Source: Ostreococcus lucimarinus (Eukaryota). From it: a stretch of 64,000 bases of DNA. Below the pieces are notes generated by a model that saw only the letters and a list, made by a program, of their open reading frames with translations, had not been told where the DNA came from and made no database searches. Positions 9,756 through 53,114 of this stretch are shown here, in pieces. The number at the start of each line of letters is the position of its first letter. Within the stretch, counting starts at the first letter, position 1. The stretch lies in assembly GCA_000092065.1 (NCBI GenBank), contig CP000588.1. One strand, 5' to 3'. A program made the position numbers and the translations under genes.

Positions 9756-10390
9756 TCACTTCTTCGCCTTCCCCAGCGTCGCGTTCGTCAAGAAATCAAA
9801 CTTTCTCTTAAACTTCGCCGCCTGTCCCGTGGCCGGTCCTTTGATCACCTTGCCCGTGTACGCCGGGTGGTTGTTCGCGTCGAGCGTCAAAAACAGGTAG
9901 TCCCCGAGTTGTTTCACCGTCGTCGGCACGCGGCGCGTCGACCCGTTCGTCGCCACGACCGTGAGTCTGTGCAGCAGCGGGTGAATTCCTTTGCGAGGCT
10001 GCGTTCGAGGAGCGCGCGGCGCGTTCGCGCGGCGTCAGTCGTCGAGTTTTCAATCAAACCCCAGATTTCGAGTCAAGTTTTCGATCGCCCGCGGGCGCGA
10101 TGCGCGCGCGCTCGAGCGCCGCGCGACGCGCGCGAGGACTCGACGCGCGCGCCGTTCGCGGCGGCGCGATCGAGCGCGAGAACGAGGCGAGCGTCACGCA
10201 CCATGCACGCGCTCAGGAATGGCGACGCGCGGCCGCACACGATGCCGCACGCGGCAGCCGCGCGCGCGCGCGCGCCGGCGCGGTGCGGGCGGCGCGGACC
10301 TGGAGCGGTGCGTCGAGCGCGGGCGCGGGCGAGCGCGGGCGCGGCGTCGACGAGCGTCGTCGAGGGCGTCGTCACGCGCGTGGCGCGCAT
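9756..10390 (-). CDS. rpl31: Organellar ribosomal protein bL31, two exons: exon 2 = 9756..9998 and exon 1 = ~10202..10390, with an intron ~9999..10201 (203 nt). Exon 1 encodes an Ala/Arg-rich presequence ending ..SACM. It may alternatively consist of the ATG alone.
   Basis: Exon 2 translates as PRKGIHPLLHRLTVVATNGSTRRVPTTVKQLGDYLFLTLDANNHPAYTGKVIKGPATGQAAKFKRKFDFLTNATLGKAKK. Compare E. coli bL31 [34 protein letters not shown]. The intron has donor GTGCGTGACGC, a branch cgACTGACGcc about 35 nt before acgCAG. Joined through the intron, the frame stays open. The gene stops 1 nt before the RAP gene ATG. Confidence 0.55.
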
Positions 10391-11720
10391 GGGGAAACGC
10401 TTGACGTTCGTGGACGTGCGCGCGCGCGAACAGCTGCGCACGCGAGACGGCGAGGAGACGTCGACGGTGTTCGTCAAGTGCGCGGCGCAGGTGCCGCCGG
10501 TGATCCGACCGGGCGCGGTGGTGGAGTTTGAATACGAGTGGGAGACGCGACGGGCGAAGAGCGGGACGCGGAGCGGCGCGTACGTGTCGACGACAGAAAT
10601 GCGCGTGGTGGAGCTCGCGCCGGTGACGAGCGTGGCGAATGCGACGAGTGAAATGTTGGAAAAGTTTGCGGGAGTAGGGTTGATCGATACGACGGCGCGA
10701 AGGAGTAAAGGATTTGGGATTTGCAAGGTGCTTCTCGGCGGCGACGTCTGTTCAGATCCAAACTGCGATAAACGGCATGACGTGAACGAAGAAGAGTTGA
10801 GCCAGGCGCGAGAAAGTCGGAAAAGAGCGCGAGAGCGATCTAAGATGGCGATCGAGCGAGAAAGATCGGATAATGACCCGCACGGAGATGCGAATAAGGA
10901 GGCAAAGTGCGTCAGCGATCGGTTATTCGCCGAATGGTGCGTCGAGACGTTCAAGCTGAAGGAACGACGGGAAGTGGTCGTCGCTGATATTGCAGGTGGT
11001 GCAGGGGCGTTATCGTTCGAATTCCATGTGAACCACGGCGTAGGGGTCGTGCTCATAGAGCCGCGATGTGTCGCTTTGACACCTCGGCAACGCGCTACGG
11101 CGAAGAATTTGCGTCGACGCGGAGCGCGAAATGACGCCAATCCAGACGTCGCAGATGCGTGGCTTCGATCAGAAATCTGGGTCAAATGCGCAGATGAGCA
11201 AAACGAGAAGCGGATGCATGAACACGTGCAGCGACTTGTGGCGTACACGGAAATTGCGAGCAGCAAAGACATTAATGTGAGCGCTAGCGCTCCCCCGACC
11301 GACGTCGTAACTTTGCACGAGGCACCATTCGACGAGTTCCCCACAGAACTTCCCCGCACGGTCGTAAAGTCACCTTTTGGAGCTGAAATTGCGCCTTTCA
11401 CGCACATACGCTCGGAGTTTTGGACGACAGATTCTTCTGTTGGAGCGCGCTTGCGCGAGATGCGTCCTTCGCTCCTCGTCGGCATGCACTCTGACCAGGC
11501 CACGGAAGCAATCATCGACGCCGCGCTCGAGCTCGATGTCCCATTCGCTGTCGTACCATGTTGCACGTTTCCGGAGCTGTTTCCTCACCGACGCACCGCG
11601 CTGGGTGGTCCGGTGGCGTCTTACGCCGACTTCATCGAATACCTGCGCGGCAAACATCCATCCATCCGTTCGACGTTCCTACCGTTCAAAGGCAGGAACC
11701 AGGTGTTGTACAAAACTTAG
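10389..11720 (+). CDS. Putative TRM13-like tRNA 2'-O-methyltransferase (CCCH zinc finger plus Rossmann-like methyltransferase). The track ORF begins at 9696, but the Arg-rich upstream part is probably not coding.
   Basis: ..FGICKVLLGGDVCSDPNCDKRHD (C-x8-C-x4-C-x3-H); ..REVVVADIAGGAGALSFEF.. (SAM-binding GxG-like); ..LLVGMHSDQATEAIIDAALELDVPFAVVPCC.. resembling the TRM13 'GKHLCG.ATD' region. Its first ATG, MGKRLTF, overlaps the bL31 ATG on a CATG. Identity is from recalled motifs only. Confidence 0.35.
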   Translation: MGKRLTFVDVRAREQLRTRDGEETSTVFVKCAAQVPPVIRPGAVVEFEYEWETRRAKSGTRSGAYVSTTEMRVVELAPVTSVANATSEMLEKFAGVGLIDTTARRSKGFGICKVLLGGDVCSDPNCDKRHDVNEEELSQARESRKRARERSKMAIERERSDNDPHGDANKEAKCVSDRLFAEWCVETFKLKERREVVVADIAGGAGALSFEFHVNHGVGVVLIEPRCVALTPRQRATAKNLRRRGARNDANPDVADAWLRSEIWVKCADEQNEKRMHEHVQRLVAYTEIASSKDINVSASAPPTDVVTLHEAPFDEFPTELPRTVVKSPFGAEIAPFTHIRSEFWTTDSSVGARLREMRPSLLVGMHSDQATEAIIDAALELDVPFAVVPCCTFPELFPHRRTALGGPVASYADFIEYLRGKHPSIRSTFLPFKGRNQVLYKT

Positions 11721-11831
11721 ATTATCGATAGCCATTAGGTTATTAGTACACTATAGCGATAGCTGTTACGCTCAGCGACTCCACCCGAGAGCTCGCCGCC
11801 GTCTCGTCTTCATAGCGTGGCTCGTCGCGCC

Positions 11832-12248
11832 ATGTCCTCCCCGAGCGTCAAAGTCGAGGACGACGACGCGGGCGCTTCCATCGAAGACGAACAAAGCTTC
11901 TCGCTCGCCGACGCCCTCTCGCGCGCGAACTCTGAGGCCGAAGCGGCGTCGTCGAGCGGCGATGGTGACGGTCCGAAGGATCCCATGGCAAAAGTTAAAG
12001 CCGCACTCGCGTGCCCGTGCGTGGCTGATCTCCGTCAATCTTCGTGTGGAACGAGTTTTGATGAGGCGTTGACGTGCTTTATGCTGGCGAAAGACGAGGA
12101 GAAGGGGAAGAAGTGCGTGGAGGAGTTTGTGTCGCTACACGCGTGCATGGTGAAGAACGCAAACGAGTTTCAGGAGTTTGCAAACGAGTTGTTGGAGCAC
12201 CAAGACGTGCGTGGACCTGCAAAAGCGACGACCAACGCGGGGAAGTGA
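11832..12248 (+). CDS. MIA40: Mia40/CHCHD4 homologue (mitochondrial intermembrane-space oxidoreductase). The track ORF starts on GTG at 11817.
   Basis: ..KAALACPCVADLRQSSCGTSFDEALTCFMLAKDEEKGKKCVEEFVSLHACMVKN..: a CPC redox motif followed by twin Cx9C (C-GTSFDEALT-C and C-VEEFVSLHA-C). This is the diagnostic Mia40 core. Confidence 0.75.
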   Translation: MSSPSVKVEDDDAGASIEDEQSFSLADALSRANSEAEAASSSGDGDGPKDPMAKVKAALACPCVADLRQSSCGTSFDEALTCFMLAKDEEKGKKCVEEFVSLHACMVKNANEFQEFANELLEHQDVRGPAKATTNAGK

Positions 12249-12347
12249 TAGATTATTACTTAGAATGATAATACCATCGCATTAGAATCATAGATCATCG
12301 TTTCGAAGAATAGATGTCGCGTTTACCAGAGGAAACATTGCCGTCGA

Positions 12348-14414
12348 CTAGAGCGCCGCAGCCTTTGCGCGCCAGGCGTTGAAGGCGTCGGAACCCGATG
12401 TGACGGCTTCGCACACAGCAGCCAAATAAATATCAGCCACAGATGCGGTCCTACCGACGAGGTAGCCAGAAGTCGACGCCACGAGAGCCTTTTCCACCTT
12501 AGCGGCTGCGGCTTCTGCACCCGCGCTAGTTGATTCAAGCAACGCTTCGACGCGCGCTTGTTCCGCGACGCCAGCCGGATACAAACCCGCACCGACGCGG
12601 TTGGTCTTGACGAGGTGACGAATGATGGAAATAGGCGACGCCAACACGAGGTTGCCTTGGACGAACACCGGCGTGGCGTTGTCAGTCTCCGTCTTGATTT
12701 CCTCCGGACACATCGCGGCAGATTCAACCTTCACCACGGCACCGCATCGCTTCAAGATTTGTTGAATAGCCTTCGAAGCCGCGCACGGACCGGCGTTGAC
12801 GTATGCCGTCGCTTCGACGCCAGCCGCGGTGGCGGCATCGTTGGACGCAAACAAGTCCGCCGGCGGCGGAGAGACATCCACGAGACGACCCTTCTTGTCG
12901 AGCGTGCGAACGAACGGGATGAACTCGATGCCGTTCATCCACGGTCGCAACGCCGGCGGCACGACGAGACCTTCGGGGGTTTGCCAGTTTTCAATCAAGC
13001 AGCACAAAGTGCGCTCAGTCGCGGTGAGCGTCGAGTTGAGCAAGTGCACGTACGCCTTCTTGTTCTCCGGACCCTTCTTTGGTGCGCCTTCGCGTATTTC
13101 CAGTCGCCGAGATTGGTAATCGGTGCAGTTTGAGCACGAAACCAACTCGCGGAAGGTGCGAGACGACGGAAACCACGCTTCGAGATCATACTTTTTCGCC
13201 GCGGCGTCGTTCAACTCCCCGCTCACAATGTTCACGACTTGGTACGGAATGTTCAACGACTGGTAGAACGCCTCCGAGTTTCCTATGAGACGTTCCATTT
13301 CGTCCCAACTCGCGTTGCCTTCGCCCGAGACGGCGACGAACTGCTCAACCTTTTCGAATTGATGAACGCGGAAAATACCGAGTGTGTCGCGACCGTGAGA
13401 ACCAACCTCCTTACGGAAGCACGTCGAGTATCCGGCGAACCGAATCGGTAATTGGTTCGTATTCAACCAACGCTTACGCAAGTACGAACAGCACGTTTGC
13501 TCGCTCGTGGCGATCAGGTACTTGTCGTCGCCCTCACCCGTCACTTTGTAGAGTTGCTCATCAAAATCTGCGAGTTGCGCGCACTCCGCCATACGGTCCT
13601 TTCGCATGAAGAATGGCGTCGCCAGCGGCGTGTGCCCTCTGCTCGCCAAGAATGCGAGCGCATAGTTGATCACAGCCTGATTCAAGAGCGCCCCTGCGCC
13701 CTTGAGATAGTACCCTCGCCCGCCCGCGACTTCGGTCCCTTGCTCTACGTCGGCAATATCCAACATAGAAATCAAATCCACGTGATTCGGAAGCTTTTCT
13801 TCCATGCGTTTCTCCCCCCACGTGCGCACGATGACGTTATTTTCTTCATCGTTCGATACCGGCACGCTGTCGTGCACGATGTTCCCAATCTTCAACAACG
13901 CCGTCGTCGTCTTCTCCTCCAGCTCCTTTTCCTTCTCCGCCGCCGCCTTTTTCCTCTCGTCAATCTCCTTCACCTTGGCCATCAACGGCGCCGCCTCATC
14001 CTTCTTCCCAGCCTTCATCAACATCGCCACTTCCTTATTCGCCTTATTAAATTCCCCTCCGACTTCATCCAGCGCGTGTCTCGCCTCGCGCCACGCGAGA
14101 TCGAGCGCCAAGACGTCGTCCACGTCCTCCACGCGTCCGAACCTCCGCCGTTCGCTCTCTCGCACCGCCTCCTGCGTCATCGTCGCGCGTCGCGCGCGTC
14201 GTCGTCAGTCACCGTTCGCGCGCGCGCGTCATCGCCCATCCGCGCCACCGTGCGCGCGCTTCGCGTCCAACTTTGCGCGCGCGCCGTCACCCATCGCTCG
14301 ATCGCGTCGTCGTCGACGTCCTCCGGCGTCCTCCGCGACGCGCGCGCGCGACGCGCGCATCGCGCGCACCGGGTCGCCGCCCTTGTCCGGCCTGAGCATG
14401 TTGACGTCCAACAT
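12348..14414 (-). CDS. SARS: Seryl-tRNA synthetase with a C-terminal GST-like extension, two exons: exon 2 = 12348..14171 and exon 1 = 14370..14414, with an intron ~14172..14369 (198 nt).
   Basis: Class II core (..YSTCFRKEVGSHGRDTLGIFRVHQFEKVEQF..). Exon 1, MLDVNMLRPDKGGDP, spliced to exon 2 EAVRESERRRF.. recreates the conserved eukaryotic N-terminus (MLD.N.FR.EKGG(N/D)PE.IRESQ.RRF). The unspliced ORF lacks it. The intron has donor GTGCGCGCG, a branch ggTGACTGACGac, and acgCAG. Confidence 0.85.
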
Positions 14415-14613
14415 CGCGCGTCGTCGCGCGCGCGTTCGCGTGTGCCGCGTCGAGGTTTTCTTTTTTTCGCGCGCGAGAGAAACGATCGCGTTCTCGACTC
14501 CTCGCGCGTCGCGCGTCGCGCGTCGCGCGCGCGAGGGGCGCGCGCGCGATTCAGTGCGTTTAATCCCACGCGCGTGGCGTCGTTACAACCGTCTAAGTCG
14601 CGCGCGTCGACGC

Positions 14614-24050: not shown

Positions 24051-24051
<1 letters not shown>

Positions 24052-29769: not shown

Positions 29770-31655
29770 ATGCGCGGCGACGGCGCGACGCGCGCGCGCG
29801 CGACGAGACGAAGGGAAAGAAAAAGGGCGAGGCGCGGCGACGCGAACGGCTTTTTGGGACGAACGCGCGCGCGCGCGGCGCTGGGCGTCGCGCTGGGCGT
29901 CGCGCTCGCGACGCGCGCGGAGGGGAAGAGACGCGATGATGCCGAGGCGCGCGCGAGCGGGCTGCGAGGTGCGGAGGATCGACGCGAGGCGAGGCGAGGC
30001 GGACGATGGGCGCGGACGCGGGCGAGGCGACGACGGAGGCGCGAACGCGAGGAGGGACGGATCGAACGCGCGCGCGGTCGAGCGCGGACTGACGATGAGG
30101 TTTCGCGCGCGGTGTAGATGGAACGGTGCCGACGTCGGTGTACGTCGACGGACCGACGATGGCGATCGAAGGGACGGCGAACGCGCCGAGCGGAGCGGCG
30201 GTGCGGGGACACGCGAGGTGGGACGCGAGGCGGTTGTTTCATGAAGTCGCGGTGAGCGTGCGAGACGTGAACGGGGGATTGAGCGCGTCGCGGTGCGAGT
30301 TGTTTCACGCGTGGACGGTGCCGGTGTTCAACACGACGACGAATGTGACGACGATTGAGTGGAAGAGCGCGCCGGCGACGACGAGACGCGAGCGAGACGA
30401 AGAGAGCGACGCGAGAGCGACGAAGAGAGCGACGACGGTGGTCATCGTCGGACCGTATGAAAAAGGGTATCTGATCACGCCAAAGTGTCGGGGCGTGGGG
30501 AAAGGAGGGACGATCAAGTACGCGGTGTCGGCGACGAGTTCATTTCAGCCGAAACTCGCGGCGCGTCTCGTGGCGGGCGTCGCATTGTTGCTCGTTGCCC
30601 CGGTCGTGGCGAGTTCAGTGACGTGCTTTTACACAGTTGCCATGACACTGTCGACGTTGGCTTTAGTGCTGATCGTAATACATAGATTTTCGCGAGCGAT
30701 ACCCGGGGGTCGGATGGTGAAGCGCACCACCGCGTTTGCGGCGTTTGCGACGTATCACTTTGTGCCTGACGAACAATGGCAAAACATCATGGATATGTAC
30801 TGGAAAATGTCAACAAAACCGATCATGTTGGTGCTAAATTTGATCAAAAGACGTTACGCCAACGCTAGCTTAGAAAGTATCATCGTTGAAGATCCCTGGG
30901 CGCTGTACAGCGCACTGACCGGTTTCGGATTGCTCGTCCTCGGCGCCGGCGTCGGTCGTTGGCTCGTGCAATCCTTCGTCTTGGACGCCGTCACCGGCGG
31001 TGTCGCGGGATCAGTGCGCTCAACTGTGACGATGGTCATTCGCATCGTCGGTTGTGGTTTGATTCAGTTTAGCTCGCGTGATGTACCGTGCGCGACAGCC
31101 ATGGTCGCGTGCGCCGCGACGTATGGCTTGTACGCGCCCGTCGTGCGCGCTTCCGATCGCATCGTCGATGCTGCCGGTCGTTTAGTGCGCCGCGGAGGCG
31201 CAAGTGCTTTGCACGAAGATCATGAGCATCAACTGAGCGATTCAGACTCGGAAGAGCGCGAAGACCAGCTTTTCTCGCTCGGTCTTCGCCGCCGCTCTCG
31301 GCGCCCGCTTCCTCCGACGCTCGATCCCGATCCTCGAACGCCGCCGAGACGCTTGGACGCGCGCACTTTGCGTTCGCCGACCGTCCAACGTCGTTCGTTC
31401 TTCCCCGGGATGTTTTCATGGAGCAACAAGAGCGCGTCCTCGAACGAATTTGTCACCGAAACCGGCGAGGACGATCGGCGTCCTCCCGTCGGCTCCGCCG
31501 CCGCCGCCTTCGGCCGCTTCCTCTCCGCCGACGAGCACGAGCACGCCGGACGCATTAAAACCGACGACGCGTTAGAACAATTAGCCCGCTCGCCCGAGTT
31601 TGCGACCTGGCTCGCGAAGAACGCCCACAGAGTGCGCGTGACTCGCGAGCTCTAG
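29770..31655 (+). CDS. Multi-pass membrane protein with a signal peptide (possibly NEMP/TMEM194-like), two exons: exon 1 = 29770..29968, intron ~29969..30117 (149 nt), exon 2 = 30118..31655.
   Basis: Exon 1, MRGDGATRA..FLGRTRARAALGVALGVALATRAEGKRRDDAEARASGLR, ends in phase 1. Donor GTGCGGAGG; branch GGACTGACGatgagg; then gtttcgcgcgcggtgTAG. The splice joins in frame to GTVPTSVYVDGPTMAIEG.. (the track ORF 30126..31655 starts on GTG). At least 6 hydrophobic segments (..LVAGVALLLVAPVVASSVTCFYTVAMTLSTLALVLIVIH..). Confidence 0.45.
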
Positions 31656-34663: not shown

Positions 34664-35356
34664 CTACGCCGCGGCGGGCTCGCGAGAGACAAACTTTCGC
34701 AGCGCCACGCGACCGCACTTTTTATATTCGTCCACGAGATCGTGGCACGCGGTGACGTTCGCGGCGTTGGCGCCGTAACACGCGCGAACGCTCGCGGCCT
34801 CGACGGCGCACGGCGGCTCGCGCGCGCCGTTGAATGGATCGCGCTCGAGCGCGTCGAGCTCCTCGACGAATCGACGCGTTCGAGCGATTTCTCCCTCCTC
34901 TCGCTTGAGCAATAAATCTCCCACGCGCTCGCTCGCGCGAAGCGCGCCGTCTACATCTGGGTGTCTGCGTCTCACCGCCTCGTCCGCGATCGCCTCGCGA
35001 TGATTCCCCGGCGCGACGCGCGCCGTCGACAACAGGTCCGCCGGCGCGAAGAGCCCGCGCGCCGCCGTCCCCGGTTTCGCCCCGATCCCGCTCGTCGACG
35101 CGCCTCCCCGTTCGCCTCCGCTCGCCGCTCGCGCGTCCCGCTCATTTTCACCGACGTCTTCCCCGCTCGCCCGTCTTCGCGCCCTCTCGAGCTCGCGAAC
35201 CAAGCGCGCCGTAATCTATTCGCCTCGCCGCCGCGCGTCGTCAGTCGTCGCGCCGCGTTCGAACCTCCATCGCGTTCGAGCCTCCGCTCGCGCGTCGCCG
35301 TCCGTTCGGCCGCGCGCGGACGACGACGACGGCACCGTTCGCGTCGTCGGACGCGT

Positions 35357-35411
<55 letters not shown>

Positions 35412-35512
35412 CTTCGCATCGCGCGTCGTCGCGTCGTCTCGCGCACCCGTATCCGCGCCTGCGCGCCCGATCGAGCGTCGTTCGCCCGCGCCGCGCTCTT
35501 CGACGCGCCCAT
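34664..35512 (-). CDS. N-myristoylated coiled-coil CHCH protein (MICOS Mic19/CHCHD3-like), two exons: exon 2 = 34664..35215, intron ~35216..35446 (about 230 nt, containing a (GTC)n microsatellite), exon 1 = ~35447..35512.
   Basis: The track ORF (34664..35203) starts on TTG and has no Met at all. An in-frame acceptor gcgaaTAG|ATT sits 25 nt after a branch cgACTGACGacg. Upstream exon 1, ATG GGC GCG TCG AAG AGC.. (MGASKSAARANDARSGAQARIR), ends at a GTGCGCGAG donor. Exon 2 has a coiled coil and a C-terminal twin Cx9C (C-AVEAASVRA-C .. C-HDLVDEYKK-C). Confidence 0.5.
35343..35411. repeat. (GTC)n trinucleotide microsatellite, about 15–22 units. It lies inside the proposed 5' intron of the Mic19-like gene.
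   Basis: Uninterrupted gtcgtcgtc.. run. Both strands give long artefactual ORFs here (poly-Asp on the minus strand, poly-Arg/Ser on the plus strand). Confidence 0.85.
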
Positions 35513-38897: not shown

Positions 38898-40030
38898 TTA
38901 ATACGGGCACGCCTTCGGAAGCTTGGTCTTGGCATTGCGGCCGCTCATGTCAAACTTCTTGTTCGCGCTTCCACCCATGACCATGAGGTCGCCTTGGTAC
39001 TTGCGCAAGGCGCGCTGCGCTCGACGGTGCACCAAGGAAATTTGGGTTGGCAACGTCGGGTAGTCTCTGCGAGTGATTCCACCGCCACTACCACGACAAA
39101 CGCCGTCGCTTGAAACTTGCATGCCGGCGTGTCGAGCGTTGGCGCGAACAGAATCGCGACTGTCGCTCGGACGGTGATTTTGCTTGTAGTATCGTCGAAA
39201 CTCTCGCGGACCGATGCGCTTTGCCTTTCCATCGGCGCCGATAATGATGAGTTCGTAGCCGTTGTCGGCCAGACGCACTGGACCATTCGTGAGTTCTTCC
39301 ATGGAAAATGCCGGGGCGTCATCGTCCATATCTTCATCGCTACTCTCCGCCTCTTGCGCGGCGCGTTCGATGTTCGCCAGCGCCTCTTGCGTTTCATCTT
39401 CGTCCATTTCTTCCCATTCACCATCGTACTCGTCCACGTCGTCGTCGTCGTCATCCTCTTCGCCTCGTCGTCGCGAGATTTCATCCAACAACGCCTCCGG
39501 AACCTCTTCTCCCCGCGCGATGTACGCGTCCACCTTGGCCAGCGTCTCCTTGTGCGCCTCGGCCCACTTCTCGAATCGCTGCGCCCGCAACACGCTTCTC
39601 GGAAGCTCATCCTTGCGCTTCAGATGCGATTTTCCCGCCTTAGCCGTCCCTCCTTCTGACCTCTTCTTACTCGCCGCCTCCTGCGCCGCCGCTTGCGTCA
39701 TCACGCGGTCGAACAAGTCCTTCCCGACCACCGGCAAACCGGCGACGCCGCGCTTCAAGTTGTACCGATGCCAATCCGATTTGTAATGCAGCTTCAGCGC
39801 ATCCATGGTATCGAACACCACGCCCTAACGTCGCGCGAACAAACGTGCATCACAGTCGTCAGTCACCGCGCGCGTCGACGGCGACCACCGCGCGTCTCTC
39901 GTCGTTCGACCCGTCGTCGTCGCGCGACCATCGCGCGAGGGCACGCGTTTCGTCTTTCCCTCGTCATCGCCGCCTCGTTTCGACGCACCGGCGCGGTGTG
40001 ACACGTCAACCCAGCCCCGGTATCACTCAT
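38898..40030 (-). CDS. REI1/ZNF622-like cytoplasmic pre-60S factor lacking the canonical zinc-finger cysteines, two exons: exon 2 = 38898..39824, intron ~39825..39988 (164 nt), exon 1 = ~39989..40030 (MSDTGAGLTCHTAP).
   Basis: Exon 2: ..DALKLHYKSDWHRYNLKRGVAGLP.. (Rei1 first-finger helix) and a C-terminal ..YELIIIGADGKAKRIGPREFRRYYKQNHRP.. (Rei1 ..ELHLPTGIKVGHRSLQRYYKQDLKP..). The track ORF starts on GTG right after an in-frame TAG. The intron has donor GTGCGTCG, a branch cggTGACTGACGac, and gacgTTAG. The middle C2H2 pair of yeast Rei1 is absent. Confidence 0.5.
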
Positions 40031-42437: not shown

Positions 42438-42704
42438 TGCACACTTTGTTGTAAACTCATTCAACTGTAGACTTATTCAACCGCCTTTTTTAGCTCACGA
42501 ACGCGAGCTCCAAAAGGATTCGTTCCTGCACCACGCGTCGTCCAGGCTAAATTTGGCCGATAACGCTCGTTTTGTCTTCCCGTCTCCCACCGAAAACGCC
42601 AAAACGGCTGCGTCACAATAAGGACGCGCGGTCGACGCCGTGAGCGAGCGAGCGCGTCTCGGGACGCGTTAATAGTGCCACGCCCGTCGAACACTTACCG
42701 CCTC

Positions 42705-43787
42705 ATGTCCACAGCACTCGCCGCGCTCGCAACGACGGCGATGGCGACGACGACCGCGTGGGCGACCGCCGAGGACACTGCGAGAAAAGATCTTGACGAC
42801 GCGGCGAAACGCTGCGACGACGACGCTCACCGCTGGAGAAAGTATGGACACAAGAAGATCGGAAAGCGAGATAAAACGTCGAACGACCTCAGCGAGCGAT
42901 CGTATTACCGATGCTCGTTCGAAGGATGCCCAGCGCGAAAGCGCGTCGGGTGGTGTCCAGAGACAGGACACACGCGCGTGTGGTATGAATTCGAGCACAC
43001 GTGCGGGCAAGTGATGCGCGGACCGTGTTCGCAGTGCGGTACGAAAGAGTCACCGCAGTGGCGCCGCGGGACTTGCGCGAAACCGGTGCTTTGTAACGCG
43101 TGTGGGGTGCGTTACAGGAAGACGCAAGCGGTGCGTGACGAGACAGACGAAATGAACGCACAAGGTCCGGTTAAGAAGCGCCCTATGGTCACGGATCCTG
43201 CGAATAACGACGTTGGTGAGAAGAGAGCGAATGTTGTTACCAGTAATGGACAGGTTGCGCGTATAAAGAGAGGAAGGTCGAAAAAGTCAGTGCCCAAAGA
43301 GCTTTTATCAGCCGCCAAGCGGGTCGTGGAGCTCAGTCGAGCGCCGGAGGGAAATTCGCTGTTTCAGCACGTTTTGATTCCACGCGCGCCGCGGACGAGC
43401 GCCACAGTCGCGACAAAGCCATTGATACCCGCACCAAAGCCGTTGACTGTACCGGAAGGCGTTAGAAACATCCGGTTGTTCGCTCGCGTGCAAACTGAAA
43501 ACGGCAACAAGACGGTGCTGAAGCCAGTGCGCGTGATGGTTTCATCGCAAGTCGAAGTCGAGAAGCTCCGCACCCAACTTACCATCAGAGATGCGAGCTT
43601 GAAGGCCGAACGAGCTCGTGCGCAAGCACTCGAGGCGAAAGTCAATTTTTTGCGCGCTCAGTTAGAGTGCAAAGCTCTTCGCGCGCGCCTGCGCGAAACG
43701 GCAGTCAGCAAGGCACCGGAAGAACGGCCGAGATCGTCGCCATCGATGAACGAGCAGGCGCGCGAGAAATTGGAAGTAGATTTGTAG
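42705..43787 (+). CDS. WRKY plus GATA zinc-finger fusion transcription factor with a C-terminal coiled coil
   Basis: WRKY domain: ..HRWRKYGHKKIGKRDKTSNDLSERSYYRCSFEGCPARKRVGWCPETGHTRVWYEFEHTC (WRKYGxK heptad plus Cx5C..HxC). Plant-type GATA finger with an 18-residue loop: CSQCGTKESPQWRRGTCAKPVLCNACGVRYRK. Coiled coil ..EVEKLRTQLTIRDASLKAERARAQALEAKVNFLRAQLE... The track ORF starts on GTG at 42675. Confidence 0.7.
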   Translation: MSTALAALATTAMATTTAWATAEDTARKDLDDAAKRCDDDAHRWRKYGHKKIGKRDKTSNDLSERSYYRCSFEGCPARKRVGWCPETGHTRVWYEFEHTCGQVMRGPCSQCGTKESPQWRRGTCAKPVLCNACGVRYRKTQAVRDETDEMNAQGPVKKRPMVTDPANNDVGEKRANVVTSNGQVARIKRGRSKKSVPKELLSAAKRVVELSRAPEGNSLFQHVLIPRAPRTSATVATKPLIPAPKPLTVPEGVRNIRLFARVQTENGNKTVLKPVRVMVSSQVEVEKLRTQLTIRDASLKAERARAQALEAKVNFLRAQLECKALRARLRETAVSKAPEERPRSSPSMNEQAREKLEVDL

Positions 43788-44882: not shown

Positions 44883-45486
44883 TTACATGCCCTGAGACGC
44901 CAAGTAGTCGCCGAACTGCTCGACGTGCGCGCTGACTTGTCTCGTCTCCAAGTTATCGCCGTGAATGCCGATCACGAACGCCGTTTTGGTCTTTTTGATC
45001 ACGACGCCGTGCTGCGCGCCGCGCTTGCCGCGCACGACGCCGTAGTCGTCGCCGCCGTTGAGAAAGACGTAGCGCGAGCCACCGATGGTGATGCCCTCGC
45101 TCGCGCGCTCGATGGGATCAGCGAATAACGCCATCAACGCCCGCGCTTCATCGGCGTTGAAACCTGGGAATTGCGCGCTTTGTCCCCAGACGTTTCCCGC
45201 GTGGTCCGCGATGCAGCACGCGCTCAGCGCCGCGGCGTCGCCGTCGGGGACGGCGATCACGCTCAGCGACTCGATCATGGCCTGCGATCGACGATATGAT
45301 CATCGCGCCCGTCATCGTCAGTCCCCGCGCGCGTCTTCGCGTCCGTCCGCGTCGTCATCATCGAGTCTCTTCCCACGCCGACGAGACGTTTCGTTCGTTC
45401 GTTCGTTCGTTCGTTCGTTCGTTCGTTCGTTCGTTCGCGCCGTCGCCGTCGTCGTCTCGTCTCGCACGCACGTCCCAGCCCGACAT
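44883..45486 (-). CDS. PFN: Profilin, two exons: exon 2 = 44883..45281, intron ~45282..45471 (190 nt, containing a (TTCG)n microsatellite), exon 1 = ~45472..45486 (MSGWD).
   Basis: Exon 2: A-MIESLSVIAVPDGDAAALSACCIADHAGNVWGQSAQFPGFNADE..RYVFLNGGDDYGVVRGKRGAQHGVVIKKTKTAFVIGIHGDNLETRQVSAHVEQFGDYLASQGM (profilin fold). The canonical N-terminal MSW..YVDEHL is restored only by splicing exon 1 (MSGWD|AMIESL). Donor GTGCGTGCGAG; branch ggGGACTGACGatgacgg; tcgCAG acceptor 3 nt before the track ATG. Confidence 0.8.
45388..45437. repeat. (TTCG)n tetranucleotide microsatellite, about 12 units, inside the profilin 5' intron
   Basis: gtttcgttcgttcgttcg... perfect run. Confidence 0.85.
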
Positions 45487-46728: not shown

Positions 46729-48108
46729 TTAGCGGCGCATGAAACCGCCGCCGCCTCTGCGTTCGCTGCCTCGGTTCCACGGGAGTCTCGACTCTCTCGG
46801 CGGCGCGGGTGCATCGTCTTGTTGTCGCGAGCGGCCTCCAACTGCAGCTTGTTCGCGGAATTTACCACCCGGTCCAGCTGGTTGGAAACCCGTCGCGACG
46901 ATGGTCACCGCGATTTCACCCGTGTGCTTCTCGTCGACGACAGAACCGAAGATGACGTTCGCTGACGGGTCCGCAAGCGAGGTGACGACTTCGGAAACGG
47001 TGTTGACCTCCATGAGCGTCATGTCCGGACCACCGGTGATGTTAAACACGATACCAGTCGCTCGGTCAATGGAGTGCTCAACGAGAGGAGCGCTCATGGC
47101 GGCTCTCGCGGCCTCCTCGGCGCGGCCCTTACCGCTCGCCACGCCGACACCGAGCATGGCGGTACCGCTGTCCTTCATTACCGCGCGAACATCGGCGAAA
47201 TCGACGTTGACGAGACCTGGAATCGTGATAATGTCAGAAATACCTTGCACACCTTGACGCAAGACGTCGTCGGCGAGCAAAAACGCCTCCTGAAGAGCAG
47301 TGCCTTCCTCCACGACATCGAGCAAGCGATCGTTCGGAATAACGATCAAAGTGTCAACATTCGCTCTAAGCGCTTCGATGGCTTCGGTGGCTTGTTGAAT
47401 TCGTCGTCTTCCTTCGAACGAGAAGGGGTACGTCACGACGCCGACGGTCAAGATGCCCTTCTCGCGCGACATCTTCGCAACCACCGGCGCGGACCCACTC
47501 CCGGTTCCGCCGCCCATGCCCGCGGTAATGAACACGAGATCGGCGCCCAATACTGCCCGTTCGAGCTCCTGTCGGCTTTCAGTCGCCGCGATCTCCCCGA
47601 GCTCAGGGTTACCGCCCGCGCCCAAGCCTCGCGTCACCTGCTCGCCGATTTGGCACTTGTTCGGCGCGAGCGAGTTCACCAGCGCCTGAGAATCCGTGTT
47701 GACCGCCCAGAATTCCACGCCCTACCGCGTCGAAACATCACACCGCCGTCAGTCATTCGCGTCCGCGCGCCGTTCGTCGAGCGCGTCGTCGCGCGCGCGT
47801 CCTCGACCCGCGGCTTCGTCGTCGCGTTTGAATCGCGCGCGCCAGACGCGGCGCCAGCTCGCGCGTCCCACCTGTAATCCGCTGCTGATCATGCGATTCA
47901 CCGCGTTCCCGCCCCCCCCGCCGCATCCGATCACCTTGATCACCGCCGCGCTCGCCCTCGCGTCCACCGCGCGTCGTCGCGCGCGCGTCGTTCCTCCCAC
48001 GCGTCGCGTCCGCGTCGCCATCGGCGTTCGCCCGAACGCCGCGAGCTCGTTCGTCTTCGCGCGCGCGCGCGCGCCGAGCGCGCCGTGCGCGCGCGTCATC
48101 GCCGCCAT
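46729..48108 (-). CDS. FTSZ: Plastid-division FtsZ with a transit peptide, two exons: exon 2 = 46729..47721, intron ~47722..47871 (150 nt), exon 1 = ~47872..48108.
   Basis: Exon 1 ..[17 protein letters not shown]..(transit peptide)..[25 protein letters not shown] | exon 2 [45 protein letters not shown]... The splice lands inside the universally conserved NRMI.SGLQ|GVEF(W/Y)A(I/V)NTD segment. Donor GTGGGACG; branch aaTGACTGACGgcgg; gcgGTAG. Track ORFs 46729..47718 and 47749..48684 are the two halves in different frames. Confidence 0.9.
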
Positions 48109-48216
48109 CGCGAGCGTCGATATCGGATGCTCGACCGGTCGTGCGCGCGCGTGTGACGGCGCGGGCGCGAGTCGCGCGCGACGGATCGTCGTCCCAGCGC
48201 GATTTCGAACGAAACA

Positions 48217-49711
48217 ATGATTTTGGCGGGAACCCGCGGACCGGGGCGGGGCGACACCGCGGCGACACCGCGGCGCGCGCGAGCGAGCGCGATGGTGCAC
48301 GCGAGCGGGACGAGCGACGTGGACGTGCGTGAACGAACGAACGCGCGGGCGACCGCGCGCGCGCGCGAGGAGCGCGAGCGCGAGCGCGACGCCGCGACGA
48401 CGACGGGGGCGGGAGACTGACGGGAACGGGAACGGGAACGCGCGCAGAGCTCGCAATTGCGAGTGAAGATGACGGGACGACCGCTGCCGAGATGCGCGGA
48501 CGAAGAACTCGGGTTCGGGACGGTGCGCGCGCGATGCGAGGCGACGCGCGCGCGCGTTGGGCTTTGATTCGGGACGCGGCTTTGGTTTGTGCTTTGGTCG
48601 GGGCGACGCGAGGAGGCAAAAGGGGACGCGATGACCGATGACTGACGACGCGCGCGGGGACGATGTGAACGAACAGGTCATCACCGATCACATGTTGAAG
48701 ATTGAGTGGAACGTCGAGCGCGGTTGGAACCATCCGATGATTCTCCCGAGCGGACCGGTGGGGTTGCACCCGTTCGCGCACGTGTTTCATTACGCCGTGG
48801 AGTGCTACGAGGGCATGAAGGCGTACGTAGACAATAATGGATCGGTGCGATTGTTTAGGCCAGAGATGAACATGCAGAGATTTCGCGTCTCCGCGAAGCG
48901 AATGTCTCTCCCGGATTTCGACGGAGAGCAACTGCTAAAATGTATCGAAACGTTGGTTGACATAGACAAGGACTGGATTCCGAAGCAGAGAGGGTACTCT
49001 ATGTACCTGCGACCGGTGATTTTCTCCACTACGCCTTGGTTGGGCTTGACGCAGTGCGCGGAGGCGATGATTCTCGTGTTGTGCTGTCCCGTGGGGCCGT
49101 ATTTCAAGTCTGGATTCGTGCCGATTAAGTTGAGCGTCGACTCAAAGTACATTCGAGCGTGGCCTGGGGGCACCGGTAACGTCAAATCAGGCGGTAATTA
49201 CGGTCCTACGGTAATTTCTCAGGCCGCCGCGACCGCGAATGGGGCTTCTCAGTCGCTGTTCGTGTATGATAAGCACGAATACGTGACCGAGGCAGGGACG
49301 ATGAACATTTTCTTCCTCATTCGCAACGAGCAAGGGGTGAAACAACTCATCACGCCTTCGTTAAAAGATGGTACAATCTTGCCTGGAGTCACGAGGCAAA
49401 GCGTGATTGAGCTTAGCCAACAATGGAACGAATGTGAGACTGTAGAAAAGATGATTCCTTTCGCCGAGATCAAGGCGGCGTTTGAGAGAGGCGACGTGTT
49501 GGAAATCTTTGGCACCGGCACCGCCGCGGTGATCCAACCAATCAATGGTATCGTGTACGAAGGCAAGGAGTACAAACCGGTCGTTCCATTTGATGATTCG
49601 ATGCTTCAGGTTCGGCTCACGAATTTCCTCATCGGTGTGCAGTACGGAGACATCGATCACCCGTGGTCGCACGTCGTCCCACCCTCGACGACTTGGTCCA
49701 AACCCATGTGA
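48217..49711 (+). CDS. BCAT: Branched-chain amino-acid aminotransferase (PLP fold type IV) with a presequence, three exons: 48217..48324, 48448..48522 and 48677..49711, with introns ~48325..48447 (123 nt) and ~48523..48676 (154 nt).
   Basis: Exon 3 begins VITDHMLKIEWNVERGWNHPMILPSG.. and exon 2 ends ..CADEELGFGT, recreating the conserved ..L.FG..fTDHML..EW junction (human ..LVFGKTFTDHMLMVEW). Both donors are GTGCG(T/C). Branches are gaGACTGACGgg and gaTGACTGACGac; acceptors are CAG. The track ATG at 48638 lies inside intron 2 (atg act gac gac = the branch motif). Confidence 0.8.
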
Positions 49712-49957
49712 TGTGCGAGGCGGACACACAGTCGTTAAACAAGTCCCTTAAGTCTATTCTTCCACACATAGTTTTTAGCGCTCGACGGCTATTCTGTCGC
49801 GAGTATCTAATGTAAATCGCGTTGTTTCAAACTCTTTCACTAGCCAAGGCCAGAAAGGCCAAGTGACGGTCGACAACTCTTTTCTCTAGCGCCACACTCG
49901 TCAAACACCGCGCGTGCGAGACGCGGCGCGCGCGACGCGACGCAAAGCTCGATCAAA

Positions 49958-50923
49958 ATGAGCTCGAACGTAACAATTTCATCTCCTCGAGCGCTCGCGG
50001 CGCGTTCGTCCGCGCACGCGCGCGGCGTCAGCGCGAAACGCGTCGCGGGGGACCGTTATTCGTGCCACGGTCGGACGCGAGGTCGAGTGCGCGCGAAGCC
50101 GACGATCGCGCGATGTGCGCGCTCGACCGACGATACAACTCGCGCAATAACGTGTGTTTCTTCGTTCATGAGCGCTCGCGACGGTCAAAACGCGCTGAAC
50201 ATGTCGACACGTGCGCGATCGATCATCGCTCGAGCGTCGAGCGACTTTGGGAGCGCAAACGCTGGGACGCCGCCTCCGCCAAAGGCGACGAATCCGATCG
50301 ATACATTCGTCGGTGGATTGAAAGATAGATTGGAGATGGACTCGAACTTTTTCTTCAAACTCGGGGCGGAGATCTCGATCGATTTCGTCATAACGTTGCT
50401 CGTAAACTTGGCGGTTCGAGGAAACCCTTCATACTGGACTCTGTCGGCGACTCTCATGGTGTTGTGCCAACTCATCACGGCGGCGATCAACGATACGTTG
50501 ATTGTTTACTTTTTGGCGCCGACTAAGGCGAGCGTGGGGAAGAAACCTGAGATTGCGAACGTGTTCGCGAAGGGTGACTACTCGCTTGCGCAGCGCGCGA
50601 TGTGCTACTTGAACAAGGGGAAATTTTACGGTATACTAGGCTCACTATCTTGCGTCCTATCCATGTTTCTGGCGTTGGCGTTGGCGGGCAACGCCGCAGG
50701 ATTCACACAAGAGGTATTGTTCCGTTCTCTTGCGTGTGGAGCATTGCATATGGGGATCAGCTCTAATACAAGATATCAGCTCGTGAACGGCGTCGAACGT
50801 TTGGCGTACGACGTCGCACCCACGAACGTCGCCAAACTAATCTCTGTGTCGGTACGAATGGGGAATAACTTTCTAGGTGCGAGACTTTGGATGATGGTGG
50901 CCGTACTCACCGGTCTTCAGTAG
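49958..50923 (+). CDS. Plastid envelope membrane protein, RETICULATA-related (DUF3411)-like
   Basis: 321 aa. Ser/Arg/Ala-rich transit peptide, then ..FFFKLGAEISIDFVITLLVNLAVRG.. and a C-terminus ..RMGNNFLGARLWMMVAVLTGLQ resembling the RER/DUF3411 family as I recall it. Confidence 0.4.
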   Translation: MSSNVTISSPRALAARSSAHARGVSAKRVAGDRYSCHGRTRGRVRAKPTIARCARSTDDTTRAITCVSSFMSARDGQNALNMSTRARSIIARASSDFGSANAGTPPPPKATNPIDTFVGGLKDRLEMDSNFFFKLGAEISIDFVITLLVNLAVRGNPSYWTLSATLMVLCQLITAAINDTLIVYFLAPTKASVGKKPEIANVFAKGDYSLAQRAMCYLNKGKFYGILGSLSCVLSMFLALALAGNAAGFTQEVLFRSLACGALHMGISSNTRYQLVNGVERLAYDVAPTNVAKLISVSVRMGNNFLGARLWMMVAVLTGLQ

Positions 50924-50992
50924 TTAGATTGCCATGTATTACTAACAATCTTCGGTCGTTTGTGCTATGGCCAGACACCCTTCTTTCCATCG

Positions 50993-52390
50993 CTAATCGA
51001 ATAGAGCGAACGCGTCTGAGTCGTCCTTCGACCCTTTCGCACGGTTGTGGCTGTGCTTGTTCACGAACTCTGTCAACGTGAGCAACGCAGAATTTAGAAT
51101 TGCGCGCTCGGAGTTTATCAACTGAATTGCCAACTCAACACGCGGAGGCGAGACGCCGCCATCTATGTTTGTTTGCGAACGATACAAGCTCAAGCGCCGT
51201 TCAATCGCGAGCGAAATAACATCCGCAACCTCCGGCGTGAGCGTTGACGGGTTGTTTCCACGTATTTTCATTGTGTTGATTGCCGTAGAGACTGTTTCTA
51301 TGGCGTGTAGTGCGTCCGCATGCCGATTTGTGTGCCTAATTTTCTGAAACGCGTCCTCGCTCGCGACCAAGGTCCAGACCACCGCACAGAGCTCTTCACT
51401 AATAGCTTGCGATTTTGAAATCGAAAACGACGCATCTGGGGCACACACTTGCGTCCGTTCGAGCCATTCGAATCGTTTTGTCAGCTGTGTCCCAGAACAC
51501 ACGCCTGCTAACGCCGCTTCGGTGCGAATGTTCGTAGTCGTCAGTCGCACTTCGTCCGCTGGATTGTCGTTTTGAGTGAATCCATAACTATTGAGTAGCT
51601 TCGCGTTCCCATGAAATCCATACGTGTTAAAAATCTCATCTCCACGGCGGACGCCTTGCTCGTTCGTCACCTTCACGCACAATGCCTCACCACCAGTCTC
51701 TGAACGCACGACGGCATCGCCATCGCCCACGTTGACGTGATGGTTGCCGGTGAGATGGTTAAACGCATCGGCAATCGGCACCAACCCAACGCCCGCGTTC
51801 GGGCTTAAAGTGAACGCGCGACTACTCACTACAGTACGCGCTTCGATAAATTGCTCGAACGAACACTCTACGCCGTGCTCCTTAAATACTGGCGCGACGA
51901 CGCGTTCCCACTCGTTCTTTGCAGCCGCCGCCTCGTCCCTGAGAGAAGTTTCGACTTCCGTGCCCGCGAGATAGCTCCGCTCGCCATCGTTCCACGCGCA
52001 CACGACGTTAGCTTCACACCTCGGTAACACTCTATCGTACGCGAAGTACCGCGACTTCAACCCGAGAGAACGCTCCACGCAAAGCGCCGCCGTCAACCCG
52101 CACAACCAACTCGCCTCTGTCTTCGTCTTCACTAAAGCCTCCTCCACGCTCGCCGCCACGTCCGCGCGCGAACACGTCTTCAGCGTCAAGCACGCTTCGA
52201 ATGGGATCACCGCCAAAATAGCGCCGCGCTCGAGCGCGCGCTTGGCCGTCACGCCGCGGTCCTTGTTCGCCTTTTGCACGGCAAAAGTGAATTCAACGTC
52301 ATCCTCGCGCACTTCGATCGCGTTCGCTCGACACCATCGCAAAAAAGCGTCGAACGCGTCATCGTTCGCCTCGTCACCGTTCTCTTTCAT
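50993..52390 (-). CDS. SET-domain protein lysine methyltransferase of the Rubisco-LSMT/SETD6 class
   Basis: 465 aa. ..GLVPIADAFNHLTGNHHVNVGDGDAVVRSETGGEALCVKVTNEQGVRRGDEIFNTYGFHGNAKLLNSYGF.. (SET core with the (A/I)D.(F/L)NH signature of LSMT-type enzymes) followed by a substrate-binding-like C-terminal region. Confidence 0.6.
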   Translation of the reverse strand: MKENGDEANDDAFDAFLRWCRANAIEVREDDVEFTFAVQKANKDRGVTAKRALERGAILAVIPFEACLTLKTCSRADVAASVEEALVKTKTEASWLCGLTAALCVERSLGLKSRYFAYDRVLPRCEANVVCAWNDGERSYLAGTEVETSLRDEAAAAKNEWERVVAPVFKEHGVECSFEQFIEARTVVSSRAFTLSPNAGVGLVPIADAFNHLTGNHHVNVGDGDAVVRSETGGEALCVKVTNEQGVRRGDEIFNTYGFHGNAKLLNSYGFTQNDNPADEVRLTTTNIRTEAALAGVCSGTQLTKRFEWLERTQVCAPDASFSISKSQAISEELCAVVWTLVASEDAFQKIRHTNRHADALHAIETVSTAINTMKIRGNNPSTLTPEVADVISLAIERRLSLYRSQTNIDGGVSPPRVELAIQLINSERAILNSALLTLTEFVNKHSHNRAKGSKDDSDAFALFD

Positions 52391-52480
52391 CTCGCGACGC
52401 GCGCGCGAGTGGCGTGCGAAAGCGCGTCAGGCCAAAAGTGTGTTGATACAAGTCTCTACGGCGTCTCGAGCGCGCGTCCG

Positions 52481-53114
52481 TCACGCCTTCCACAGTGATT
52501 TCACCGTTCGCGTGATCCCGTCGCCCTGCGTGTTCAATTTAAACAATCCCACCGCCGTCGCCGCCGTCAGCGCGAGCGTCGCCGCTCTCGTCGGTCCTCG
52601 CGCCCCCTTCGGCACGTAATCGCTGATGATCTGCGTCCCGTCGCCCGCGCGCCGCTCGTCAGTCAATCGTTCCCCATCGCATCGCGCGCGTCGTCGATGC
52701 GCCGAGTCCCGCGCGCGTCCCGCGCGCGCGGTGCCCGCGTGCGATCCCGTCCGCGCGATGGCGTCCGATTTCGCATCGATCACGCACGAAATTCATCGCA
52801 ATGTGCGAGTGCACCGGCATCGCCGCGCCGAGCGCGACGTCGATCGCGAGCTGTCCCTCGGGCATCGCCGCCGCCGCTGGCGCGAGCGCGGCGAGCGCGA
52901 TCGAGCTCGCGTGATAGATCTTCATCATCCCGCGCCCGCGATCGGCGTTCAGGACGCCCGACATCGCGCGCGGCGTCCACGCGCGAGGCGATGTGACGCG
53001 CGCGGTCCCGACCGGACGGACGTCGGGCCGTCGAGCCGGCGGGACAGACGCGCGATTTTCAAAAACGCGCGTCACACGCGAGCGACGACGACGGCGACGA
53101 CGACGGGCGAACAT
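52481..53114 (-). CDS. SDH4: Succinate dehydrogenase membrane-anchor subunit SDHD/SDH4 (CybS), two exons: exon 2 = 52481..52630, intron ~52631..52787 (157 nt), exon 1 = ~52788..53114 (or starting at a later Met, 52964 or 52928).
   Basis: Spliced product ..[47 protein letters not shown]|[49 protein letters not shown]. Compare human SDHD ..[53 protein letters not shown]. Donor GTGCGTGATCG; branch gaTTGACTGACGagcgg; acgCAG. An Arg-rich candidate presequence, [14 protein letters not shown].., would start on the CATG shared with the FEN1 ATG. Confidence 0.5.

Follow-up and report, generated by a model that had tools for sequence, protein, structure and literature searches.

The window analysed here, a 64-kb stretch (64,000 nucleotides, nt) of contig CP000588.1, is nuclear DNA of Ostreococcus lucimarinus CCE9901 with a GC content of 58.5%, and ten proteins read from it were placed by exact look-up on a CCE9901 chromosome (GenBank entries ABO97638-ABO97654). 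The subject of this work is a set of short introns situated near the 5' ends of genes in this window. The gene map was rebuilt from open reading frames (ORFs), Pfam matches and GC content by codon position, and about nine of roughly 35 genes were found to bear introns, a share near the 16-20% quoted for the O. lucimarinus genome (Lanier 2008, PMC2367439). Among 20 further ORFs of the window that were scanned against Pfam, those with matches have intact domain architectures, and in the ambiguous or unmatched ones GC content by codon position marks real frames, which are unbroken. A preliminary description of this DNA had counted at least 11 introns in 10 genes; our analysis documents ten introns in nine genes, the ten intervals listed there being upheld. 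The ten introns are given below with length, phase, signals (donor, branch box, acceptor) and flanking exons, CDS standing for coding sequence.

9999-10201, minus strand: bL31 intron, 203 nt, phase 0, right after the ATG; GTGCGT..GACTGACG..CGCAG; exon 1 at 10202-10220 (16-nt 5' untranslated region, UTR, plus ATG), exon 2 CDS at 9756-9998.
14172-14369, minus strand: seryl-tRNA synthetase (SerRS) intron, 198 nt, phase 0, after codon 15; GTGCGC..TGACTGACG..CGCAG; exon 1 CDS at 14370-14414, exon 2 at 12348-14171.
29969-30117, plus strand: intron of a NEMP-family membrane protein gene, 149 nt, phase 1; GTGCGG..GACTGACG..GTAG; exon 1 at about 29770-29968 (start codon predicted), exon 2 at 30118-31655.
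35216-35446, minus strand: intron of a CHCH (Mic19-like) protein gene, 231 nt, phase 0, after codon 22; GTGCGC..GACTGACG..ATAG; exon 1 CDS at 35447-35512 (MGASKS..), exon 2 at 34664-35215.
39825-39988, minus strand: REI1/ZNF622-like intron, 164 nt, phase 0, after codon 14; GTGCGT..TGACTGACG..TTAG; exon 1 CDS at 39989-40030, exon 2 at 38898-39824.
45282-45471, minus strand: profilin intron, 190 nt, phase 0, after codon 5; GTGCGT..GACTGACG..CGCAG; exon 1 CDS at 45472-45486, exon 2 at 44883-45281.
47722-47871, minus strand: plastid FtsZ intron, 150 nt, phase 0, after codon 79; GTGGGA..TGACTGACG..GTAG; exon 1 CDS at 47872-48108, exon 2 at 46729-47721.
48325-48447, plus strand: BCAT intron 1, 123 nt, phase 0, after codon 11; GTGCGT..GACTGACG..CGCAG; exon 1 CDS at 48292-48324, exon 2 at 48448-48522.
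48523-48676, plus strand: BCAT intron 2, 154 nt, phase 0, after codon 36 of the 380-amino-acid (aa) protein; GTGCGC..TGACTGACG..ACAG; exon 3 at 48677-49711.
52631-52787, minus strand: SDHD (CybS) intron, 157 nt, phase 0, after codon 59; GTGCGT..TGACTGACG..CGCAG; exon 1 CDS at 52788-52964, exon 2 at 52481-52630.

All ten intervals have GT..AG ends on the strand given, and the architecture previously ascribed to them (donor, branch box, acceptor, length and high GC content) was confirmed. The donor is GTGCGT in five introns, GTGCGC in three and GTGCGG and GTGGGA in one each, nine of the ten starting with GTGCG; four of the five GTGCGT donors have G as the next letter (compare the consensus GTGCGTG). 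The exact octamer GACTGACG forms the branch box in all ten introns, five of which carry TGACTGACG; between the branch A and the 3' end the distance ranges from 25 to 36 nt. The acceptors, CAG in six introns and TAG in four, conform to YAG throughout; nine introns have a purine at position -4 and five have C at -5. The introns are 123-231 nt long with a GC fraction of 0.62-0.77; on the sense strand their bodies are T-poor and G-rich (G 0.42, C 0.30, A 0.20, T 0.08), and in this composition no polypyrimidine tract was found in any of the ten. Phase 0 applies to nine introns and phase 1 to that of NEMP. The sole sequence shared by the ten segments is the set of splice signals itself, namely the donor GTGCG(T/C/G), the octamer, and YAG (often CGCAG) approximately 25-36 nt past the branch A.

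Both strands of the window together contain 11 GACTGACG octamers, and every one of them is accompanied by a GTG[CG]G donor 60-300 nt upstream and by YAG 12-34 nt downstream. Against these 11 full signatures, 200 dinucleotide-preserving shuffles of the window yielded 0.76 ± 0.81 (maximum 4). The heptamer ACTGACG alone was not significantly enriched in the window (17 occurrences versus 11.7 ± 3.6), and the discrimination comes only from the octamer combined with donor and acceptor. Ten of the full signatures are the listed introns, and the remaining one is a decoy.

51505-51709, minus strand: decoy, not an intron; GTGCGT..GACTGACG..TTAG with proper spacing, inside the SET-domain ORF 50993-52390.

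The decoy segment is contiguous (unspliced) in the complementary DNA (cDNA) contig L003, and six other clades conserve, in collinear form, the 465-aa SET-domain ORF that holds it. None of the candidate lengths of the decoy (173-205 nt) is divisible by three, and its composition, unlike that of the real introns, is not GC-rich. This single false positive fits the approximately one chance signature expected in the window; it represents a natural signature which the spliceosome must ignore. Two looser scans, one combining CTGAC with any GTG[CG]G donor and the other allowing one mismatch, returned many candidates inside continuous conserved ORFs, which were rejected, and across the window none of them bridged a broken reading frame besides the ten known introns. 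Introns of the minor spliceosome (U12-type) carry an (A/G)TATCCTT donor and a TCCTTAAC branch site near the 3' end; direct reading of the donors and branch regions of all ten introns found no such motifs. Scans of the window with Rfam and for tRNAs revealed no Rfam family, no tRNA gene and no small nuclear RNA (snRNA) gene.

The alignment of transcripts across the ten intervals, suggested in the preliminary description, succeeded for half of them: exact removal is seen in public cDNA contigs for five introns (bL31, FtsZ, SDHD, BCAT 1 and BCAT 2), and the other five have no cDNA contig. The FtsZ segment 47722-47871 is missing from contigs L003 and L004, the SDHD segment 52631-52787 is missing from L003, and both BCAT introns are missing from L085-L087, which derive from three different sequencing runs. 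The bL31 contig L002 begins with what we take to be the SMART template-switch oligonucleotide, followed by ATTCCTGAGCGCGTGCATG|CCTCGC (the bar marks the junction) with the intron removed; it locates the transcription start 16 nt upstream of the ATG, so that only 19 nt separate the cap from the 5' splice site. The genes for bL31 and SDHD, which had been described as emerging only upon splicing, indeed yield proteins equal to ABO97639 and ABO97654, and all the junction peptides quoted earlier for FtsZ, SerRS, BCAT, profilin and the Mic19-like protein were reproduced when the segments were removed.

Comparison with protein records and domain profiles agreed with these transcripts. Hand-spliced bL31 (81 aa, ABO97639), REI1 (322 aa, ABO97649), profilin (137 aa, ABO97651) and SDHD (108 aa, ABO97654) are identical to the GenBank models, and BCAT intron 2 is annotated in ABO97435. 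Spliced FtsZ (409 aa) and doubly spliced BCAT (380 aa) have exact matches in the protein collection, in both cases to transcript-type contigs. Pfam domains span the junctions, or begin at profile position 1-2, only after splicing in SerRS, profilin, FtsZ, CybS and L31: Ribosomal_L31 is matched over positions 2-64 of 65, Profilin over 2-127 of 127, Tubulin over 2-189 of 190 across the FtsZ junction and CybS across the SDHD junction, and Seryl_tRNA_N is covered from residue 1 over positions 1-108 of 108 in spliced SerRS only. The spliced models of SerRS (622 aa), NEMP (578 aa) and the Mic19-like protein (205 aa) had no exact match in the protein collection. The NEMP assignment of what had been called simply a membrane protein comes from a Pfam NEMP match in exon 2.

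The 5'-proximal location reported for these introns was likewise supported. In coordinate order from bL31 to SDHD they interrupt the CDS after 3, 45, 199, 66, 42, 15, 237, 33, 108 and 177 nt, that is, 3-237 nt into it, and their mean relative position of 0.119 was not reached by any of 200,000 uniform simulations.

The age of the introns was addressed by comparison with related picoalgae. Scanning marine metagenome contigs with FtsZ exon 2 recovered 80 syntenic loci, in which FtsZ identity forms tiers of 100, 90, 89, 87, 84, 82 and 72%. The tier at 82% (46% GC) was identified as Bathycoccus prasinos by an SDHD protein with an exact match in GenBank; the 72% locus L084 (67% GC) clusters at at least 90% with a Micromonas pusilla transcript; and the remaining tiers are Ostreococcus clades, the more distant of them with FtsZ 84-90% identical. 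Eight of the ten introns (FtsZ, SDHD, BCAT1, BCAT2, REI1, profilin, NEMP and Mic19-like) occupy the identical codon position in other Ostreococcus clades, and three of these positions (FtsZ, REI1, BCAT2) are shared with Bathycoccus as well.

FtsZ intron: found in every Ostreococcus clade and in Bathycoccus, always at the same codon; absent from Micromonas L084.
REI1 intron: junction LTCHTAP|GV(V/I)F in all Ostreococcus clades examined, present in three Bathycoccus loci.
BCAT intron 2: junction LGFGT|VITDHM in six Ostreococcus loci, present in the Bathycoccus-like locus L070, absent from Micromonas L084.
SDHD intron: present in all Ostreococcus clades examined (six loci), absent from Bathycoccus; Micromonas L084 has an intron at a different position.
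Profilin intron: present in all Ostreococcus clades examined (seven loci), absent from Bathycoccus, where MSWQEMIENL is contiguous.
BCAT intron 1: present in five Ostreococcus loci (L011, L022, L027, L030, L033), precisely absent from L016.
NEMP intron: same junction, ..LR|DGTVPTSVYVDGPTM, in locus L088 of another clade, with the signals GTGCGC..GGACTGACG..CGCAG.
Mic19-like intron: same junction and same signal types in L088.

The bL31 intron is present in the sole relative compared (L092, 95% identical), and the SerRS locus L090 belongs to the same species (99.7% identity). In L016 the BCAT frame is continuous through DVD|SGRLRVK at approximately 9065-9235 (minus strand of the locus), which represents an exact loss of BCAT intron 1 in one Ostreococcus clade and a direct example of intron loss. 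Across the Ostreococcus clades the donors read GT(G/A)CG and once GCGCGT, and the branch box reads (G)ACTGAC or close to it. The FtsZ intron of L019 (approximately 2600-2885) has an apparent GC donor, ..GGCTTGCAG|GCGCGTGTGAG, a form that fits the GYGCGY of Mamiellales. The interiors of orthologous introns scored like shuffles in 18 of 21 comparisons. The orthologous introns of Bathycoccus carry GTAAGT, GTACGT or GTGAGT donors and T-rich tails; since donors and tails differ at the same positions, the signals have therefore changed in place. Most of the introns are old and vertically inherited rather than recent insertions, with interiors that drifted to randomness and signals that were kept.

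In our view, with a probability of about 0.93, these are spliceosomal introns of the ordinary U2 type, all ten of them members of the canonical class that O. lucimarinus has outside the atypical half of chromosome 2. A rigid, yeast-like consensus of splice signals, one of two explanations offered in the preliminary description, is correct and matches what has been published for O. lucimarinus introns outside chromosome 2 (PMC2483917). Among 319 such introns confirmed by expressed sequence tags, ACTGAC occurs in 87% and GACTGACG in 66.5%, together with an atypical donor GTGCGTG (4.8 bits), a preference for CGCAG and a branch-to-AG distance of approximately 20-35 nt; the intron-dense half of chromosome 2 shows, in contrast, weak signals (Irimia & Roy 2008, PLoS Genet 4:e1000148, PMC2483917). 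The octamer has also been described as the extended branch point of 'canonical Ostreococcus introns', common to a short introner family of Micromonas RCC299 (Verhelst 2013). What was observed is correct and lies well outside chance expectation, yet it was already known, as signals, spacing and acceptor preference were published in 2008.

The resemblance to this canonical class extends to the donor, the octamer, the CGCAG-type acceptor, the spacing of 20-35 nt, a length of 100-200 nt and an intron-poor genome. Beyond the 2008 description of O. lucimarinus, which gave only a hint of conservation from O. tauri, our data add per-gene positions, phases, T-poor and G-rich bodies and conservation across clades. 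Introns in the low-GC half of chromosome 2 belong to the same genome and, according to the literature, presumably depend on the same spliceosome, but they are 40-65 nt long and dense, with weak GTRNGT donors and no clear branch box, unlike the strongly marked introns of the window, which belongs to the 'normal' part of the Ostreococcus genome. Saccharomyces cerevisiae and other hemiascomycete yeasts offer a parallel: they are intron-poor, their donor and branch boxes are near-invariant, their 5' introns often lie right after the ATG, and as here there is no need for a long polypyrimidine tract. Yeast introns differ in their motifs (GTATGT and TACTAAC versus GTGCGT and GACTGACG) and in being AT-rich rather than 62-77% GC, and the lineages are unrelated, so that the likeness is one of convergence.

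The literature suggests how such a state may have arisen. Rigid signals would be the convergent condition of intron-poor genomes, in which the few surviving introns lie close to the optimum of the spliceosome, and no compensating change in U1 snRNA would be involved: GYGCGY donors occur across Mamiellales alongside a standard U1 pairing region and no compensatory snRNA change (Roy & Bowser 2022, bioRxiv 10.1101/2022.06.08.495308). From established knowledge of splicing, ACUGAC would pair with the GUAGUA region of U2 as a CURAY-type branch site, with a G.U pair where yeast has A-U. The 5' position may result from preferential loss of introns from the 3' part of genes via reverse-transcribed mRNA, the explanation usually given for the 5' intron bias of intron-poor unicellular eukaryotes, namely loss mediated by reverse transcriptase from the 3' side (review, PMC3488318). 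The loss of BCAT intron 1 in L016 is the kind of event that would produce such a bias, and promoter-proximal introns might additionally be of some benefit to expression.

Several points weigh against this reading. The introns of SerRS, NEMP, the Mic19-like gene, REI1 and profilin are without a cDNA contig and rest on GenBank models, Pfam continuity or conservation across clades. The census is incomplete for introns with weaker branch boxes, some of which may have escaped; approximately 13% of the non-chromosome-2 class are without ACTGAC (Irimia & Roy 2008, PMC2483917). The causes proposed for rigid signals and 5' bias are drawn from the literature. Finally, the 12-kb cDNA contig L003 retains both BCAT introns. 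BCAT lies on the strand opposite to the FtsZ and SDHD transcripts that dominate this contig, and cDNA contig L004, which represents the FtsZ strand, reaches position 48406, approximately 300 nt upstream of the FtsZ ATG and within BCAT exon 1/intron 1. The divergent FtsZ and BCAT genes have overlapping 5' transcript ends. Because BCAT is on the opposite strand and RNA of the FtsZ strand extends to 48406, the retention in L003 probably reflects head-to-head transcript overlap (antisense or FtsZ 5'-UTR reads) and not failed splicing.

Of the alternatives, the one that survives best, although we regard it as very unlikely, holds that the class is the remnant of an ancient introner burst in the ancestor of Ostreococcus or of Bathycoccaceae, in which all similarity except the selected splice signals has been lost. 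The loss of similarity between orthologous bodies of different Ostreococcus clades would render such an old family invisible today, the octamer is common to an introner family of Micromonas commoda, and the introns of SDHD, profilin and BCAT intron 1 occur in Ostreococcus and are absent at the site from Bathycoccus and/or Micromonas. Absence from a sister genus is, however, equally explained by loss, and one loss was seen directly in L016. The introns of FtsZ, REI1 and BCAT2 predate the split of Ostreococcus and Bathycoccus and have other donors and T-rich tails there, as expected if the signals changed in place, and signals have converged in the same way in numerous intron-poor lineages that are unrelated and have no introners (Irimia & Roy 2008, PMC2483917). 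A more specific form of this idea, in which the GACTGACG/GTGCG class is the worn remnant of an introner invasion of gene 5' ends in the ancestor of Mamiellales, related to ABC-IE/IE-C, is similarly improbable. If it were true, the uniform signals would have been inherited from a founder element and not evolved in place; it could concern the Ostreococcus-only introns (SDHD, profilin, BCAT intron 1), and nothing specific supports it.

More doubtful still is the second explanation offered in the preliminary description, an introner-like mobile intron family. On this view one or a few source sequences would recently have been copied into many genes together with their own splice signals, as in Micromonas pusilla CCMP1545. 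Micromonas introners (D-IE in M. pusilla CCMP1545, ABC-IE/IE-C in M. commoda RCC299) come from the same order and are functional spliceosomal introns in which branch points can be recognised; in IE-C the box is GACTGACG, exactly as here (Verhelst 2013; van Baren 2016). The strikingly uniform signals of the window introns, and the restriction of (GAAC)n runs in the window to two introns that are not related, could also be taken in its favour. Introners differ, though, in showing high identity along the element, hundreds to thousands of copies and lineage-specific presence, while the window introns have bodies alike in composition only, an approximately two-fold range of length and positions common to clades and genera. 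The introner papers (Verhelst 2013; van Baren 2016) report introner elements only in Micromonas, with Ostreococcus as the canonical comparison.

The introns were also compared directly within the window. The bodies of the ten introns in this one 64-kb window were compared after removal of the splice signals in 45 pairwise local alignments, and their similarity did not exceed that of dinucleotide shuffles (mean score 19.4 versus 18.7 ± 0.58; best pair 31 versus 32.6 ± 2.9). No 5-mer occurs in more of the ten introns than expected given approximately 1000 tests. Sensitive blastn of the introns against the window gave only GC-rich low-complexity matches, which were set aside, the shuffle-controlled alignments being used instead. 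Target-site duplications and terminal inverted repeats are reportedly hallmarks of introners of the DNA-transposon type; at the ten introns neither in-register target-site duplications nor terminal inverted repeats were found beyond CGCG low complexity. The tails between branch and acceptor are on average slightly more alike than shuffles (7.2 versus 6.6, p about 0.01), as the published preference for CGCAG acceptors predicts. The two pairs of near-identical 3' ends pointed out in the preliminary description fall within chance: the FtsZ/NEMP tail pair scores 10, a value that some pair reaches in 35% of shuffled sets, and for a 14-mer identity such as that of SerRS and REI1 the expected number over the 45 pairs is 0.2 under the column preferences CG-N-N-GACTGACG-A-Y. 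With bodies that behave as shuffles, no shared k-mer, no terminal repeats or duplications and eight of ten positions shared at the identical codon by clades with FtsZ 84-90% identical (three also by Bathycoccus), the mobile-family proposal is not sustained for these ten introns. Least probable of all, to the point of being negligible, is that the segments are GC-rich spacers or sequencing or annotation artefacts and the unspliced ORFs are native, for which hundreds of unspliced ORF copies in metagenome catalogues and the BCAT introns kept in L003 might speak, but which exact excision of five introns in cDNA contigs refutes for bL31, FtsZ, SDHD and BCAT, with conserved domains truncated when splicing is omitted, a Mic19-like exon 2 without Met and a BCAT 'start' ATG inside a branch box arguing further against it.

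The interpretation of the ten segments as canonical spliceosomal introns has consequences for the gene models of the window. That start codons and whole small genes are hidden from the ORF track is true of that list, but the spliced genes were missed because a bacterial ORF finder with the bacterial code was applied to eukaryotic nuclear DNA; GenBank already holds spliced bL31, REI1, profilin, SDHD and BCAT intron 2. Several start codons of the track had been suspected of being false, and correctly so: the BCAT ATG at 48638 belongs to gATGACTGACG, the branch box of intron 2, and both the TTG of the Mic19-like gene and the GTG of REI1 lie in exon 2. The SerRS track ATG at 14180 falls in the intron tail, and exon 2 of the Mic19-like gene contains no Met codon. 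The start of BCAT is at 48292 (MVHASGTSDVD), supported by cDNA contigs L085-L087 and four other clades. A 405-aa BCAT model was rejected, having a wrong start codon and no exact match, where the 380-aa protein has one. GenBank entry ABO97435 (BCAT, 362 aa) starts in exon 2 and is without intron 1; the 11-codon first exon is supported instead. For SDHD the start at 53114 proposed previously is not favoured; the most likely one is 52964, because the 108-aa GenBank model and Bathycoccus start there and Bathycoccus has no upstream Met.

For the Mic19-like gene GenBank entry ABO97647 uses the same acceptor with a 2-codon 'ME' exon, whose donor lies near 35270; this would imply a tiny atypical intron. 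Locus L088 reads MGARAS..KIR|GTGCGA...GAGACTGACG..CGCAG|ITAHLV, and this conservation favours a candidate 22-codon MGASKS exon, with a myristoylation-like N-terminus, and the GTGCGC donor. The donor side of the earlier MGASKS proposal is thereby favoured, and the GenBank model disagrees with its exon. A homolog search with the spliced Mic19-like protein returned only ORF-style genomic calls that read into the intron and was uninformative on exon 1. Two GenBank models of CCE9901 thus appear improvable, BCAT with respect to start and intron 1 and the Mic19-like gene with respect to exon 1.

The significance for biology is small, given that the signals were published for the species in 2008 and a 5' bias is textbook knowledge for intron-poor unicellular eukaryotes; the practical value lies in annotation, as a scan for GTGCG..GACTGACG..YAG restores true N-termini at the price of approximately one false hit per 64 kb. 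Truncated exon-2 ORFs predicted by prokaryotic gene callers are on record for hundreds of marine metagenome contigs (FtsZ 329 aa, BCAT 357 aa, L31 66 aa, SDHD 61 aa, profilin 131 aa), and protein catalogues thus hold systematically N-terminally truncated picoalgal proteins with false starts.

Some further features of the introns and their neighbours were noted. In the window (GAAC)n is intronic and confined to the sense strand, with 12 units in the profilin intron (45404-45447, minus strand) and three in BCAT intron 1 (48331-48342, plus strand), and GAAC/CGAA-like runs lie close to the donors of orthologous introns in L033 (profilin) and in L011 and L022 (BCAT intron 1); the repeat may be a microsatellite that has persisted or else a weak element within introns. 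The bL31 ATG overlaps an in-frame ATG (CATGCAC) of the opposite ORF 9696-11720 (plus strand), which contains a DIAGGAG motif and was read as methyltransferase-like, with no Pfam match. SerRS (12348-14414, minus strand) has a C-terminal extension of approximately 140 aa with a weak match to GST_C_3 (E = 0.0015, under the Pfam cut-off), and some metagenome callers name a fragment of it glutathione S-transferase. The ORF 42675-43787 (plus strand) combines a WRKY domain (residues 49-110) with a GATA zinc finger (118-150), an unusual pairing of DNA-binding domains.

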